From NCBI GenBank assembly GCA_963836075.1, contig CAWIIB010000009.1, positions 3,264,001 through 3,328,000 on the forward strand: a stretch of DNA of 64,000 bases, given 5' to 3'. The position numbers were made by a program, and so were the translations under genes. Below the pieces are notes generated by a model that was given only the letters and a program-made list of their open reading frames with translations, was not told the origin of the DNA and searched no databases. How positions within the stretch are numbered: position 1 is the first letter of the stretch; each line of letters opens with the position of its first letter. The stretch comes from an uncultured Acidobacteriota bacterium. GTDB taxonomy: Bacteria; Acidobacteriota; JAQAZP01. Shown here one piece after another: positions 6,664-13,651 of this stretch.

Positions 6664-6678
6664 TGGCACGGGAGTTGC
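6664..6678 (+). promoter_or_regulatory. sigma54 (RpoN) -24/-12 promoter
   Basis: TGGCACG-GGAG-TTGC, exact match to TGGCACG-N4-TTGC, ~130 bp upstream of the 6808 ATG. Confidence 0.75.
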
Positions 6679-6807
6679 TCTCTAGGGTGGTGTGCGTCGC
6701 CAGGCGATACACACCCCAACTGAAACCGGGCCCGCCAGAGCGGGCTTCACCAGCGGAAGGCCGGGGCAGGAGATGACGGCCGGACGCATAGCCAGGGAGG
6801 ACAGACC

Positions 6808-8523
6808 ATGACTTCCACAAAACCGAGACAATGGGTGGTGCGAATGCTGCTGGCCGCCGGGGTCCTTCTGGCCCTGGTGGCGGCGGCCCCCGAAGCGCAG
6901 GCCGGTTTCCAGTTGTCCATCGGCACCGGAGGGTTTTACTTCTCCGTGGGCCACAACGACTACTACCCCTATTACAGCCAGCCGGCCCACTACGGCGGGT
7001 ACGCCGCCACCTCGTTCAGTTTTTACAACACGCTGGGTGACTACGGCTACTGGCAGTATCTCCCCGAGATGGGGATGCAGGTCTGGATCCCGTATGTGGA
7101 GTATGGCTGGCGGCCTTACACCTACGGCCACTGGACCTATTCGTCCTACGGCTGGACCTGGGTGGCCTACGAACCATGGGGCTGGATCCCGCACCACTAC
7201 GGGAACTGGACCTATGTGGACCACTACGGCTGGGCCTGGGTCCCCGGGTATACCTGGAGGCCGCACTGCGTGCAGTTCGCCGTCTGCAACGGCTACATCG
7301 GCTGGGCCCCCATGGCTCCGCCCTGGTACCGCTACCACAGCAACCGCGGCTACCGCTATCACGGCGACCGGGGCTGGTACTCCGGCTGGCGCCACGGGCA
7401 CCAGCGTCACGAGTACAGCGGTATCGACTACAGCACCTATGTCTTCGTGGACAACCGGAACTTTTACGGCACCGCTATCCAGCAGCACGCCCTGCTCCCC
7501 GGGAGCGGAGCGGAGATGTTCCGGGCAGGCCAGGTGATGCCGCTGGGTGAGACCCTCGACCTGGACTATGTCCGGCGGGTCTCCAGGCAATCGATCACGC
7601 CGGTGGCCCTGGACCGCCAGGTGTACAAGGTCAATGGCAGCGAGGTGGTGCACTACCAGCCCCGCGGCCAGGAAGACCTGGTGCGCGACGCGGCCCTGCC
7701 CACGGTGAACAGGGTTCTGGCCCCCGGATTCCAGAAGCACGGCGTCAGTTTCAAGGGCTCGTCGGCCAGGAGCGCCGGTTCGGTGAACAGCATGTTCCAG
7801 CAGGGCAACGTGACGCCGAGGACCACGACCTTCAAACAGTCTGCGGTTTCCAGGGGAATGGCCAACGACGAGTATTACCAGAAGCAGAAGCGCACCCTTG
7901 ACAACCTGTCCCGTTCACGGGCGTCGAACTCCGGGGCTGCCGACACGGCTTCCCCGAAGGGCCGGCAGTCGTCAAAGAGCGTGGAACGTTCCTCGCCGGC
8001 CGGAACAACCCCGGTGGCCACCGCAGCCAATGGACGGAGCAGCGGCTACAAGCCGCGCAGTGGTGCACAAGCCGGCAGCCAGGGGTCATCGTCCCCGGGC
8101 AAGAGCCGGTCGATCAGCCGCGGCGCGTCAACTTCGGGCAGGAACCAGTCGGTGAGCAGGGGCGGGTCGTCCCCGGGCCGGAGCCGCACGGTGACTAAGG
8201 GATCGGCGTCATCCACCAGCCGCAACCGGTCGGTGAGCAAGCCCCCGGCGTCCACCAGGACCGCGCCCGTGCCGCCGCGCAAGCCGTCGAAGCCTGCCGG
8301 ATCGGCGTCATCCACCAGCCGCAACCGGTCGGTGAGCAAGCCCCCGGCGTCCACCAGGACCGCGCCCGTGCCGCCGCGCAAGCCCTCGAAACCGGCCCGT
8401 ACGTCCGGCAGTTCCCGCGCTTCCCGCAGCAAGCCGGCCGGAAAGGCTGCCGGAAAGCCCTCGGGCAAACCCTCTGCCGGGGAGAAGTCGGCGGACAAGG
8501 GCAAGTCCGGAAAGCGTAACTGA
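6808..8523 (+). CDS. Secreted DUF6600-like (Y/W/G-rich repeat) protein with long S/R/K/P-rich disordered tail
   Basis: Signal peptide; FYNTLGDYGYW...GWRPYTYGHW...EPWGWIPHHYGNW pattern; low-complexity C-terminal ~200 aa. Confidence 0.7.
   Translation: MTSTKPRQWVVRMLLAAGVLLALVAAAPEAQAGFQLSIGTGGFYFSVGHNDYYPYYSQPAHYGGYAATSFSFYNTLGDYGYWQYLPEMGMQVWIPYVEYGWRPYTYGHWTYSSYGWTWVAYEPWGWIPHHYGNWTYVDHYGWAWVPGYTWRPHCVQFAVCNGYIGWAPMAPPWYRYHSNRGYRYHGDRGWYSGWRHGHQRHEYSGIDYSTYVFVDNRNFYGTAIQQHALLPGSGAEMFRAGQVMPLGETLDLDYVRRVSRQSITPVALDRQVYKVNGSEVVHYQPRGQEDLVRDAALPTVNRVLAPGFQKHGVSFKGSSARSAGSVNSMFQQGNVTPRTTTFKQSAVSRGMANDEYYQKQKRTLDNLSRSRASNSGAADTASPKGRQSSKSVERSSPAGTTPVATAANGRSSGYKPRSGAQAGSQGSSSPGKSRSISRGASTSGRNQSVSRGGSSPGRSRTVTKGSASSTSRNRSVSKPPASTRTAPVPPRKPSKPAGSASSTSRNRSVSKPPASTRTAPVPPRKPSKPARTSGSSRASRSKPAGKAAGKPSGKPSAGEKSADKGKSGKRN
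8200..8397 (+). repeat. 99-bp in-frame tandem duplication within the disordered tail
   Basis: GGATCGGCGTCATCCACCAGC...CGCAAGCC at 8200 and 8299, identical over ~86 bp. Confidence 0.9.
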
Positions 8524-11360: not shown

Positions 11361-11942
11361 ATGAATGTCAAACAATTCGTCATCGATGAGTACGAATCGA
11401 ACTGCTTCGTGGTCAGTTGCCCGGAGACCGGAGAGGCTCTGGTGGTTGACCCGGGCAAGGACCAGGAAGATGTCCTGCAGTGCCTTGCTGAACAGGGGCT
11501 GACGGTTCGCTACATCTTCATCACCCACGCACACTACGACCACGTGGGCGGGGTGGAAACCATCCTTCAGCGGTTCGGCGGCGAGGTCCTGTCCGGCGAC
11601 GGGGAAACTGGTGGCGCACAAGGCCGGCGGGTTGCGGACGGGGAGGAAATCACCCTCGGAAATCTGAAGGGGACCTGTCTTCACGTCCCGGGCCACACCG
11701 CGGACTCCTTTTGCCTGCAGCTGGGTCCGGCGGTGTTCACCGGGGACGCGCTTTTTGCCGGCTCCATCGGCGGCACGCCGTCGGTGGAAGAGAAAGAGCG
11801 CCTGATGCAGGGGCTCCGGGAGAAGGTCTTCTCGCTCGGCGGTGAGACGCTGCTCTACACGGGCCACGGGCCGCGGAGCAGCGTGCGGATCGAGTCCACG
11901 GCCAGTCCCTTTTTTGCCCCGGAGCTCCGGTCCGGCGTCTGA
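11361..11942 (+). CDS. MBL-fold metallo-hydrolase (glyoxalase II/YcbL-like)
   Basis: THAHYDHVGG, PGHT, FTGDALF, TGHG. Confidence 0.9.
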   Translation: MNVKQFVIDEYESNCFVVSCPETGEALVVDPGKDQEDVLQCLAEQGLTVRYIFITHAHYDHVGGVETILQRFGGEVLSGDGETGGAQGRRVADGEEITLGNLKGTCLHVPGHTADSFCLQLGPAVFTGDALFAGSIGGTPSVEEKERLMQGLREKVFSLGGETLLYTGHGPRSSVRIESTASPFFAPELRSGV

Positions 11943-11987
11943 TGCGGCGAGAGGGATGTTCGGCCAGCCGGGCGGTTCCAGGGAAGA

Positions 11988-12144
11988 GTGCCGCACTCCG
12001 GCCCTTATGCTGGGTGATGAAATAAGGGGTAGCGATCGATCGTGTTGTGCATGATCAACTCCGATCGCCCCGGGGCCTGAGCCGCGGGGCTGGGGATCGT
12101 TGGAACCGAAGCACGGCACCTCATCCCTGGAACCAGTGGAACGA
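11988..12144 (-). ncRNA. Putative sigma54-dependent structured small RNA, copy 1 (no family recognised)
   Basis: Paralogous to 12486-12674; 14-bp closing stem GUGCCGUGCUUCGG/CCGGAGUGCGGCAC on the minus strand, inner GCCCCG/CGGGGC hairpin; ends estimated. Confidence 0.55.
12005..12052 (-). CDS. Putative micro-ORF MHNTIDRYPLFHHPA (15 aa)
   Basis: GGAG 6 nt upstream of ATG; first 9 residues identical in the paralogous copy, with one synonymous codon change. Confidence 0.35.
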   Translation of the reverse strand: MHNTIDRYPLFHHPA

Positions 12145-12155
12145 TGATATCCGGT

Positions 12156-12170
12156 GCAATCCGTGTTCCA
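12156..12170 (-). promoter_or_regulatory. sigma54 promoter of cassette 1
   Basis: Minus strand TGGAAC-ACGGA-TTGC (GG-N10-GC). Confidence 0.6.
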
Positions 12171-12289
12171 ACCGGCAGTCCCGCTGTGGGGAAACCCACA
12201 ACCGCTTTCCCGACAACTGTTTCACCTCTCTGCCAATCATACTCCAACAGGGGTGCGGGCCTACTCCCGGGATCATCTGCCCGGTTTCT

Positions 12290-12305
12290 GTTTCGTCTCC
12301 GTAAC
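12290..12305. promoter_or_regulatory. Putative enhancer (bEBP) site of cassette 1
   Basis: Imperfect palindrome GTTTCG-TCTC-CGTAAC, 120 bp from the promoter edge. Confidence 0.45.
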
Positions 12306-12454
12306 CGGGAGGGGATTCGTTGACGGGAATGTGGCCGATCCAGGCGGAGAAGGAAGGGGTTGTTGTGCAGCCGCCGAGAGCAGCTTCAGGCGTACAAAAG
12401 AAAAGGCCGGGAACGTGTCCAGACCTTTAAGGCAGAGAGAAAAGGGATTTAAAC

Positions 12455-12550
12455 TTATAAGCGGCCCTCATGATGCTGAAATAACTGCCGCGCTCCGATC
12501 ACCGTGAGTTGGGTGATGAAAAAGGGGTAGCGATCGATTGTGTTGTGCAT
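12455..12550 (-). CDS. Putative micro-ORF MHNTIDRYPFF... (31 aa as assembled; 27 aa if one A is missing from the A5 run)
   Basis: GAGG 7 nt upstream of ATG; paralog of 12005-12052. Confidence 0.35.
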   Translation of the reverse strand: MHNTIDRYPFFITQLTVIGARQLFQHHEGRL

Positions 12551-12674
12551 GTCCAACCCTCGAACTTTCCCCATGGCCGCATTTATGGGGATTCGGGATC
12601 GTTGGCAACCGAAGCGCGGCTGACCTATTCAGTTCATGATCGGGATGAGGATGATTTCCGCCACCCCGATCGAC
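12486..12674 (-). ncRNA. Putative sigma54-dependent structured small RNA, copy 2
   Basis: Closing stem GCCGCGCUUCG/CGGAGCGCGGC, inner UCCCCAU/AUGGGGA hairpin, 5' hairpin GAUCGGGGUG/CAUCCCGAUC; ends estimated. Confidence 0.55.
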
Positions 12675-12685
12675 TCTTCACTAGA

Positions 12686-12700
12686 GCAATCGATGTGCCA
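12686..12700 (-). promoter_or_regulatory. sigma54 promoter of cassette 2
   Basis: Minus strand TGGCAC-ATCGA-TTGC, near-perfect consensus. Confidence 0.7.
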
Positions 12701-12819
12701 AGTATCGGCCTTCATCAGAGGCAATCGATAAATCCAATGGAATCAAATTTTAGATAAGGCATGATCACGACTGATGCTGCTCATCAGCCATGAACTGGCC
12801 TGGTTGGCTTTCTGAAAAT

Positions 12820-12835
12820 GTTGCACTATTGTAAC
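12820..12835. promoter_or_regulatory. Putative enhancer (bEBP) site of cassette 2
   Basis: Imperfect palindrome GTTGCA-CTAT-TGTAAC, 120 bp from the promoter edge. Confidence 0.45.
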
Positions 12836-12922
12836 TCTCCGGTTCAGAGCGCCGAATGGTTGACAGCAGTGAACCGTCACCGGTGATCGCCGGCCTTTTC
12901 CTCCCCGGGTCGGAGGTCCGAT

Positions 12923-12954
12923 AAAAAAGGCGCACCCCTTCCAGGACGCCCCTT
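12923..12954 (-). terminator. Rho-independent terminator-like hairpin
   Basis: Minus strand GGCGTCCT-GGAA-GGGGTGCGCC-TTTTTT. Confidence 0.45.
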
Positions 12955-13054
12955 CTCAATACTTCAAGAATTCATCAATATGGATTGCTTAATATATTGA
13001 ATTGATTATATATATAATATAATTAATAAAATATCATATAAAATATAATTGGTA

Positions 13055-13083
13055 TTGACATTTGATATTAGATGTAATATAAA
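13055..13083 (+). promoter_or_regulatory. sigma70-type promoter in AT-rich tract
   Basis: TTGACA-17 nt-TATAAA, upstream of the 13136 ATG. Confidence 0.5.
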
Positions 13084-13135
13084 ATGTGTCATCTTAGTAA
13101 TTAGCAGTCCAACTCTTCCATTCTTTACAGAGAAC

Positions 13136-13651
13136 ATGAAATTACGTTTTGCCGCATTGGCGCAGGGTCAACTTCGCAGGGAACCCCTTTCGGAGAGTCT
13201 TCGGGCCCAGGGCAGCAGGCTTGTTTCCAGGCTCTGGGAACTGGCCCACCGGGACCCGTCGATCAATGTCGAACGGTGGGACCGCCGTGAGAAACGTCTT
13301 TTCGACAGGTGTTTCAAACGGTTTGGCAAAAACTTTACCCTCGACCTGGTACATCAGGCACGGCTTGAGGGGATCAGCAGTTCTGAGAGCGCAGAGAGTA
13401 TCGCCAGCCAGTTCAAGGTCTTTTTCGAAGAACTGGGAGAGAGCGTCTGGGTTCAGATTACCTTGGGTGACGACCGGCGGGGCACCGGGTTCCTCCACGC
13501 CACGCCGAAAAACCTGGCCACCGGCCTCCGGTGGGGTGACGAGATCGAATTCGCCGGCGGTACGGAAACCCGCCGGCCGCGGTTCACGCGCAGCACAGGC
13601 CAGCGGGTGAAAGACTGCGATTGTCCATTCTGCCAGCCCTCATGGCACTGA
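13136..13651 (+). CDS. Hypothetical protein; C-terminal half loosely DUF2314/YegJ-like, ends in CxCxxC
   Basis: ESVWVQI...GTGFLHATP...GLRWGDEIEF; terminal CDCPFC; next gene starts after a 1-nt gap. Confidence 0.6.
   Translation: MKLRFAALAQGQLRREPLSESLRAQGSRLVSRLWELAHRDPSINVERWDRREKRLFDRCFKRFGKNFTLDLVHQARLEGISSSESAESIASQFKVFFEELGESVWVQITLGDDRRGTGFLHATPKNLATGLRWGDEIEFAGGTETRRPRFTRSTGQRVKDCDCPFCQPSWH

Follow-up and report, generated by a model that had tools for sequence, protein, structure and literature searches.

The DNA analysed here, referred to below as the window, is a stretch of 64,000 nt from an uncultured bacterium of the phylum Acidobacteriota (GenBank assembly GCA_963836075.1, contig CAWIIB010000009.1, positions 3,264,001 to 3,328,000). 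Between a plus-strand gene of the metallo-beta-lactamase fold and a divergent hypothetical gene it contains an intergenic gap of 1.2 kb (11942-13135), which houses two direct copies of one element, named c1 (11990-12117) and c2 (12487-12620), with a start-to-start offset of 498-503 nt. The two elements represent a real, well-delimited and previously uncatalogued family of small RNAs (sRNAs). Their domains are identical at 98 of 135 positions and have in common the block TGCCGCRCTCCG, a core of 43 nt in c1 and 42 nt in c2 that differs by one substitution and one inserted A, and the block GGGATCGTTGG(C)AACCGAAGCRCGGC. A first-pass annotation of the sequence had drawn attention to the two direct copies and their shared blocks, and every sequence feature that it listed was found where it had been placed. 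Comparisons were made between the genome that contains the window (G000, 6.2 Mb), the other genomes of its genus (G001 and G002) and related loci, of which L042 lies in G001, L045 is G002-like, and L044 and L046 are metagenome contigs from at least two further relatives.

Read on the minus strand, each copy has ends that pair in a helix of at least 14 bp, the closing stem P1. In both copies the stem P2 (CCAAC/GUUGG) leads into the hairpin P3, and the shared core is borne by a 3′ strand of about 53 nt between P2 and P1, opposite a 5′ strand of 2-3 nt. The choice of the minus strand had been argued from differences in the closing stem, and these were seen at pairs 5/131 and 6/130, which are U-G and G-U in c1, and C-G and G-C in c2 and elsewhere. 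In addition, the G.U pairs 9/127 and 14/122 are invariant across the six aligned sequences. The minus strand is favoured because all these G.U pairs would become A.C mismatches on the plus strand, and the fold z-scores point the same way, being -5.23 (c1) and -3.72 (c2) for the minus strand compared with -2.13 and -1.77 for the plus strand. The change reported for the inner hairpin P3 was also recovered, with GCCCCG/CGGGGC in c1 and UCCCCA/UGGGGA in c2; the CCCC/GGGG centre is kept, the closing pairs are G-C and U-A, respectively, and the loops are unrelated. Across the six-sequence alignment 94.8% of cells pair, as compared with 34-47% for slid partners. The C/U-rich stretch of the core was correctly described as largely unpaired, since its mean predicted unpaired probability is 0.60-0.82 in the six RNAs against 0.34-0.48 for the whole molecules; for the CCCCUU..CACCC part of the c2 core the values are 0.64-0.77, those of the entire RNA being 0.42-0.48. 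Visual inspection shows the P3 loop of c2 (GCGGCC; minus strand, 12510-12551 and 12431-12447) to be complementary to the invariant GGCCGC of the 3′ tail, a possible pseudoknot of which both sides are invariant among orthologues.

The predicted c2 gene is collinear in four full-length loci of 275-282 nt, each of which presents the promoter, a 5′ hairpin, the domain, a C/U-rich motif and a terminator with its U-tail in the same order; a conserved ACUGAAUAGGU sits between the 5′ hairpin and the 134-nt domain. Since no gene follows c2 on its own strand, c2 is not a leader; it is also distant from any plus-strand gene end. In c1, which lies 32 nt past the stop codon of the plus-strand gene, the closing helix is extended to about 29 bp (an inverted repeat). 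L044 retains this helix, with one double change and several that affect one side only. The coordinates of all these features are collected in Table 1.

Table 1. Features of the c1/c2 locus, in positions of the window. Transcripts, promoters, activator sites and terminators are predictions.
Feature	Position	Strand	Details
c1 predicted RNA	11974..12146	-	domain 11990-12117 within an extended closing helix (arms 11974-11988 and 12120-12134); minimum free energy -89.6 kcal/mol, z -6.49
c1 43-nt core	12011..12053	-	one extra A relative to c2; one substitution between window and L044
c1 sigma-54 promoter TGGAACACGGATTGCA	12155..12170	-	1 mismatch to TGGCAC-N5-TTGCW
c1 activator site GTTACGGAGACGAAAC (putative)	12290..12305	-	TTACG-N4-CGAAA; same in window and L044 (2/2 c1 loci)
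c1 distal element GTCAAC	12319..12324	-	precedes the inverted repeat by 13 nt, a gap 10 nt shorter than that of c2; same in window and L044
c2 predicted transcript, ~280 nt	12395..12676	-	start predicted from promoter, end from terminator; minimum free energy -94.9 kcal/mol, z -2.95
c2 terminator hairpin and U-rich tail UUUUCUUUUG (predicted)	12396..12429	-	conserved with one-sided changes in 4 loci
c2 second C/U-rich motif CCCUUUUC..CUCUGCC	12431..12447	-	single-stranded 3′ region; kept in 4/4 full-length loci; unpaired probability 0.42-0.64
c2 core domain, 134 nt	12487..12620	-	P1, P2, P3 and large single-stranded 3′ bulge
c2 42-nt core CAUGCACAACACAAUCGAUCGCUACCCCUUUUUCAUCACCCA, candidate seed	12510..12551	-	identical in 5/5 c2 loci
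c2 5′ hairpin	12638..12671	-	forms in 5/5 orthologues despite differing 3′ arm and loop
c2 sigma-54 promoter TGGCACATCGATTGCT	12685..12700	-	-24 GG / -12 GC; 0 mismatches to TGGCAC-N5-TTGCW
c2 activator site GTTACAATAGTGCAAC (putative)	12820..12835	-	inverted repeat TTACA-N4-TGCAA; invariant in 5/5 c2 loci, 118-121 nt from promoter
c2 distal element GTCAAC	12859..12864	-	GTCAAY in orthologues; precedes the inverted repeat by 23 nt, same gap in 5/5 c2 loci
Small open reading frame from core AUG, c2	12455-12550	-	31 codons; Shine-Dalgarno-like GAGGG or GGAG 6 nt upstream
Small open reading frame from core AUG, c1	12005-12052	-	15 codons; Shine-Dalgarno-like GAGGG or GGAG 6 nt upstream
Neighbouring metallo-beta-lactamase-fold gene	11361-11942	+	Pfam Lactamase_B
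Neighbouring divergent hypothetical gene	13136-13651		171 aa; no Pfam or NCBIfam family

Family searches of the neighbouring genes yielded no clue to the function of the locus. The segment 12960-13135 is very AT-rich and contains a sigma-70-like TTGACA-17-TATAAA facing the divergent gene, in a promoter block that is kept in related loci.

Promoters and upstream sites

Upstream of each copy, on the minus strand, lies an element of the -24/-12 type that is typical of sigma-54 promoters, at a distance from the closing stem of 65 nt in c2 and 37 nt in c1. Only five matches with at most one mismatch to TGGCAC-N5-TTGCW occur in the 64-kb window and two of them are those directly upstream of c1 and c2; with up to two mismatches the window holds 24 matches against 29.7 expected, that is, no overall excess. 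The deciding argument comes from comparison between loci. The c2 promoter element is kept in L042, L044, L045 and L046, which together with the window make five c2 loci, and the c1 element, known from the window and L044, is the exact TGGCACACGGTTTGCT in the latter. A sigma-70-like TTGGAA-16-TATCAT that overlaps the c1 promoter in the window is not retained in L044. The only other exact TGGCAC-N5-TTGCW of the window (6664-6679, plus strand) lies about 130 nt upstream of an open reading frame (ORF) of 571 aa (6808-8523), possibly a sigma-54-dependent gene.

Further upstream, the seven promoters share one layout, GTCAAY-(23 or 13)-GTTAC-N8-AAC-(118-121, or 109)-promoter, in which the inverted repeat is the putative binding site of an activator. 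The distance between inverted repeat and promoter in c1 is 119 nt in the window and 109 nt in L044, and the departures in spacing amount to exactly 10 bp, one helical turn, as would be expected under face-of-the-helix constraints. In the window, the spacers between repeat and promoter are 119 nt long in both copies, yet identical at only 49 of 133 positions. Genome-wide, 163 promoter-like sites with at most one mismatch were found, and GTTAC-N8-AAC occurs within 260 nt upstream of c1 and c2 only, in both cases at -135. All three genomes of the class contain a single exact occurrence each of the 16-bp activator site of c2. A wider search for a regulon with a loose palindrome matched 11 of 1,276 promoter-like sites, compared with about 6 expected by the analyst's estimate, and only c1 and c2 share the spacing. 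The genome encodes rpoN (one Sigma54_DBD match, 226.9 bits in a profile search) and contains 39 matches to the Sigma54_activat domain. Sigma-54 control, as proposed in the first-pass annotation, is thus the probable mode of expression of both copies, given -24/-12 promoters on the minus strand that are conserved together with an upstream site at fixed spacing.

Conservation, distribution and divergence of the two copies

The c2 domain is identical at 128-133 of 134 positions (95.5-99.3%) among four genomes, in which the nucleotide identity of the adjacent protein gene is 71-82% and that of the promoter spacer 38-54%. Synteny of the copies extends over five related genomes or contigs. Comparison of the whole window with the covariance models of Rfam 15 returned three tRNAs only, and a search of 11900-12800 at E values up to 10 gave four chance-level matches, the best of which (STnc400) scored 25 bits against a gathering score of 80; no family of Rfam matches the copies. 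When c1 was compared by BLAST with the 6.2-Mb genome, c1 and c2 alone, 2 of the 22 matches listed, fell below E 0.2. Likewise, a covariance model (R1) retrieved both copies of the window and one match at E 0.67 from G000, and one copy each from G001 and G002. Dispersal in many copies, as in a miniature inverted-repeat transposable element (MITE), was therefore not seen; the genome has two copies and no others.

The same kind of search delimited the family taxonomically. In the GTDB set used the class consists of three species of one genus, the nearest other relatives being labelled only as members of the same phylum. Among sampled genomes of the phylum the covariance model detected the family in 3 of 151; in 40 relatives searched with laxer filters it detected the three genus genomes and one weak match (G011); and the pattern of activator site plus promoter was found in 3 of 401 genomes. 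Apart from this weak match, the genomes searched contained the family in the genus only, and the predicted c2 RNA is present in all three known species of this class-level sediment lineage. The weak match (locus L097, 1501-1567; G011:C109:20004-20070, plus strand), from a different family of the phylum, is a 67-nt hairpin closed by AACGCGCAGAAG/CUUUUGCGCGUU, with a loop that includes ACCUCUUUUUCAUCC, a sequence similar to the seed of c1 and c2; its covariance-model E value is 0.011 per genome, no sigma-54 promoter was seen upstream, and it may be a chance match or a distant relative. A further pattern match, in a contig labelled Alphaproteobacteria (L041), was rejected as due to chance, being located in a coding-looking region with the rest of the element missing.

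The RNA level was approached through sediment metatranscriptomes. Six RNA libraries were listed with a small share of the stretch, and four, from four studies, were examined. Each of the four contained one contig (169, 248, 179 and 154 nt; 95% to >99% alike), and the contigs cover 12485-12634, 12506-12634, 12454-12625 and 12489-12610, all inside the predicted c2 RNA and stopping short of the promoter even when their unaligned ends are included. These contigs hint that c2 is expressed as RNA. DNA metagenome runs from salt marsh, soil and marine sediment were also listed, with shares of 0.21-0.47; they were not used to assign a habitat.

The history of c1 is different. It occurs in the window and in L044, and it is absent from the syntenic gap of L042 and L045 and from the rest of G001 and G002, that is, from two of the three genus genomes. 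Between window and L044 it is identical at 110 of 128 positions, which makes it closer to its counterpart than window c1 is to c2, and shows c1 to be the faster-evolving copy (110/128 between two genomes against 128-133/134 for c2). Because the organism of L044 is the most distant of the four by its flanking gene, and c1 is closer to the c1 of L044 than to c2, the duplication is probably old, with a later loss of c1 from some lineages; we infer this order of events from the sequences compared. The description of the copies as a redundant pair does not hold: c2 possesses the 5′ hairpin, the second C/U-rich motif and a terminator and is found in all genomes of the lineage, whereas c1 lacks a terminator, has a closing helix of about 29 bp, evolves faster and is missing in two of three genomes.

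Mode of action and competing explanations

Taken together, the data are best accounted for, with a probability of roughly 0.6, by two paralogous sRNA genes on the minus strand of a single gap that are driven by sigma-54 and act in trans by base pairing. In this model, sigma-54 RNA polymerase would transcribe each gene from its own -24/-12 promoter, upon activation by an NtrC-family enhancer-binding protein that would bind the putative inverted repeat about 135 bp upstream. The main gene would be c2, with an RNA of about 280 nt that would start with a 5′ hairpin, perhaps protective, and continue with a long closing helix, an apical hairpin and an invariant single-stranded bulge of about 50 nt containing CUACCCCUUUUUCAUCACCC; a second CCCUUUUC motif would follow in the 3′ region, and the RNA would end in an intrinsic terminator with a U-tail, which is the usual layout for Hfq binding. 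The c2 RNA most likely acts in trans, probably assisted by Hfq, a gene for which was found in the genome. Through its single-stranded C/U-rich motifs it would base-pair with ribosome-binding regions of mRNAs that are rich in purines, with the result that translation would be repressed or mRNA stability altered. A role of the C/U-rich core as an anti-Shine-Dalgarno (anti-SD) seed, as suggested earlier, is plausible, the motif CCCCUUUUUC being complementary to purine-rich SD regions such as GAAAAAGGGG. For its part, c1 would be an ancient tandem duplicate in which promoter architecture, stems and core were retained, the 3′ module is missing and the closing helix measures about 29 bp. Direct observation covers the sequence elements with their conservation and spacing, the predicted folds and the occurrence of c2-like sequence in RNA libraries. 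The start and end of transcription, the dependence on sigma-54 and an activator, and the action by base pairing are predicted from sequence features.

Candidate targets were sought by several routes. RNAduplex, applied to 4,922 rough gene calls, gave uninformative target predictions, as long bulged duplexes dominate the energies (mean -21.5, standard deviation 5.7). A scan for contiguous seeds of the c2 core at ribosome-binding regions gave 73 matches of at least 9 nt, compared with 23 within genes and 21 when the RNA was reversed; this enrichment was not counted, because the choice of start codons favoured purine-rich SDs. The longest-standing candidate among the seed matches, 12 contiguous nucleotides that span SD and AUG of a gene for a yicC-like endoribonuclease (L058, G000:C1:357707-358597, minus strand), scored best but was rejected, as it is not conserved in G001 or G002. 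At the ribosome-binding site of a DAHP synthase/chorismate mutase gene only the SD part GGAAAGGGG is conserved, and the candidate is unconvincing. Two 9-mer sites conserved between G000 and G002, out of 10 loci per genome compared, lie inside genes on the other strand.

Several observations weigh against an sRNA pair that acts by base pairing under sigma-54. No conserved mRNA target emerged from the duplex, seed and 9-mer searches, and the seed complement AAGGGGTAG, a 9-mer, is rarer than its reversed control in the three genomes (39/34/33 against 86/86/75). The near-invariance over all 134 nt exceeds what a seed-pairing sRNA would need, and a small ORF begins in the c2 core. As to structure, the stems had been presented as covarying, a claim that found no statistical support: in the six sequences a single pair has both sides changed, 226 of 500 shuffles reach the observed covariation score, variation in the stems consists mainly of one-sided wobble changes and most pairs never vary. 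The support for the predicted structure comes from thermodynamics and from wobble-compatible changes; covariation statistics alone do not carry the fold. For c1, neither a terminator scan nor the comparison of loci found a terminator, and the simple scan did not list that of c2 either, which it missed because the stem has an internal mismatch. No gene for an activator, recognised as a match to PF00158, lies inside the window (C9:3264001-3328000). Finally, the RNA libraries had been preselected for holding the sequence and could contain carried-over DNA; their contigs attest the presence of c2 in RNA libraries and are silent on strand, ends and abundance, and no contig covered c1 or the neighbouring genes in the four libraries examined, which is an absence of cover only.

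Some of these points would be explained if c2, and perhaps c1, were a structured RNA that binds a protein or other macromolecule, whether as a sponge or decoy, as a component of a ribonucleoprotein (RNP) or as an RNA-polymerase-binding RNA in place of 6S, an alternative that we regard as unlikely but worth keeping in view. The failure of the target searches to give a conserved mRNA speaks for it, as do the identity of 95.5-99.3% over all 134 nt of the domain and its loops, where the neighbouring gene has 71-82%, and the complementarity by eye of the P3 loop GCGGCC with the 3′ tail GGCCGC, where no variation was seen. The 6S RNA (RF00013) was detected in none of the three genus genomes compared with 16 of 23 other genomes of the phylum; since it was also undetected in the remaining 7 of those 23, this is weak evidence. 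In G000, G001 and G002, 6S is either very divergent or missing. A replacement of 6S is not favoured by the region itself, in which no 6S or other Rfam family was matched on 11900-12800 even at E values up to 10, nor by the fold, which places 2-3 nt opposite about 53 nt, unlike the central bubble of 6S. A sponge of the CsrB type is unlikely because no CsrA gene was found in the genome; c2 contains only 2-3 GGA motifs. The paralogues differ wholly in P3 and in the 3′ part and keep the single-stranded core, a pattern that fits a seed better than a global fold. A bolder variant would make c2 a class-specific structured riboregulator of which the whole 134-nt domain is functional, as decoy, RNP or 6S stand-in, and which is switched on by a dedicated enhancer-binding protein, with its sole exact site per genome at this gene, in a closed circuit of one regulator and one RNA; this proposal we consider quite doubtful.

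The ORF that begins in the core could mean that the core is, or is also, the start of a gene for a small protein, in the manner of a dual-function sRNA, since its AUG opens a frame of 27-31 codons in c2 (MHNTIDRYPFFITQL...). The frame is open for 31, 31, 27 and 31 codons in the four complete c2 loci, and an SD-like element is equally spaced in c1 and c2. Nevertheless, this SD-like element is buried in stem P2; among the first 72 nt five columns vary, distributed as 1, 2 and 2 over the three codon positions, with no excess at the third; and the first 46 nt are invariant, while the adjacent gene shows an identity of about 53% at third positions (in one gap-free pair). Besides, the 70 nt upstream of the AUG are just as conserved, the 1-nt indel that separates c1 from c2 puts them in different frames while the next 12 nt are still identical, the frames of c1 (15 and 56 codons) are not conserved, and no Pfam or NCBIfam match was obtained. 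A coding function is thus distinctly improbable. Still further from the evidence is the idea of a non-functional or mobile, MITE-like repeat, or of a plus-strand feature such as a structure in the 3′ untranslated region of the upstream gene. That the copies are direct repeats in an intergenic gap, and that c1 lies 32 nt past a plus-strand stop codon, would suit such an origin. It agrees poorly with a count of two copies in 6.2 Mb and one each in G001 and G002, with synteny in five related genomes or contigs and with the conservation of promoters and activator sites on the minus strand; folding of the plus strand is weaker and would involve A.C mismatches, and c2 is far from plus-strand gene ends. 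We judge this reading very improbable and, on the sequence evidence, largely refuted.

Comparison with known systems

To our knowledge, almost nothing is known of RNA regulators in Acidobacteriota, and a literature search for sigma-54 sRNAs in this phylum found nothing relevant. At the c1/c2 locus, an sRNA gene with clear boundaries is combined with a sigma-54 enhancer layout of textbook form; the gene has changed less than the protein genes on its flanks and can be seen in RNA libraries from sediment. Comparison with the ancient duplicate provides a natural footprint. Of the two copies only functional elements have stayed alike, namely the half-sites of the activator, the exact spacing, the -24/-12 element, the stems and the core, and the regulatory logic thereby becomes directly testable. 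The value of the finding resides in annotation (Rfam) and in the physiology of an uncultured group, and not in a conceptual surprise.

Separate traits of c1 and c2 recall several well-known sRNAs. In Pseudomonas, PrrF1 and PrrF2 (Wilderman 2004) are reportedly tandem duplicates in one intergenic region that are near-identical, redundant and expressed from Fur-repressed sigma-70 promoters; the tandem duplication is alike, whereas the type of promoter and the equivalence of the copies differ. RsaE/RoxS of Firmicutes, a sigma-A-dependent RNA of about 100 nt, uses repeated unpaired C-rich motifs to pair with G-rich SD regions, and c2 has two motifs of the CCCUUUUC type, albeit in a different phylum and with SD pairing that is predicted only. 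The homologous GlmY and GlmZ of Enterobacteriaceae have sigma-54 promoters and sites for GlrR and have diverged in function, one being a protein decoy; they are unlinked and have overlapping sigma-70 promoters. A homologous pair with sigma-54 promoters and activator sites is common to both systems, with no relation in sequence. Closer still are Qrr1-5 of Vibrio, paralogous sRNAs of about 100 nt and four stem-loops, dispersed or beside luxO, which have an invariant single-stranded seed and, each, a sigma-54 promoter with a site (TTGCA-N3-TGCAA) for the NtrC-type activator LuxO. The shared seed, the arrangement of sigma-54 promoter and activator site and the Hfq-type terminator layout are alike, and the activator here seems dedicated, as with Qrr, the exact site occurring once per genome. 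Differences are the lack of an Rfam match, a spacer of 4 nt here instead of 3 nt, and the fact that c1 and c2 are not equivalent copies.

The likeness to Qrr in organisation, though not in sequence, had been pointed out in the first-pass annotation and is fair; an even closer counterpart appears to be Pxr of Myxococcus and Cystobacter. Pxr is a lineage-restricted and highly conserved sRNA of about 108 nt with several stem-loops, a sigma-54 promoter and an enhancer site, always adjoining the activator gene nla19, and Cystobacter has tandem, mutually diverged paralogues of it, each under a sigma-54 promoter of its own (PMC5568312). The copies c1 and c2 differ from Pxr in belonging to another phylum, in the length of c2 (about 280 nt), in having no activator gene in the window and in showing no similarity in sequence or in Rfam. 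What the two systems share is the sigma-54 promoter with its enhancer, the tandem diverged paralogues, the strong conservation and the restriction to one lineage. In conclusion, the organisation of c1 and c2 is most like that of Pxr or Qrr and, judged by this analogy, closest to that of Pxr.

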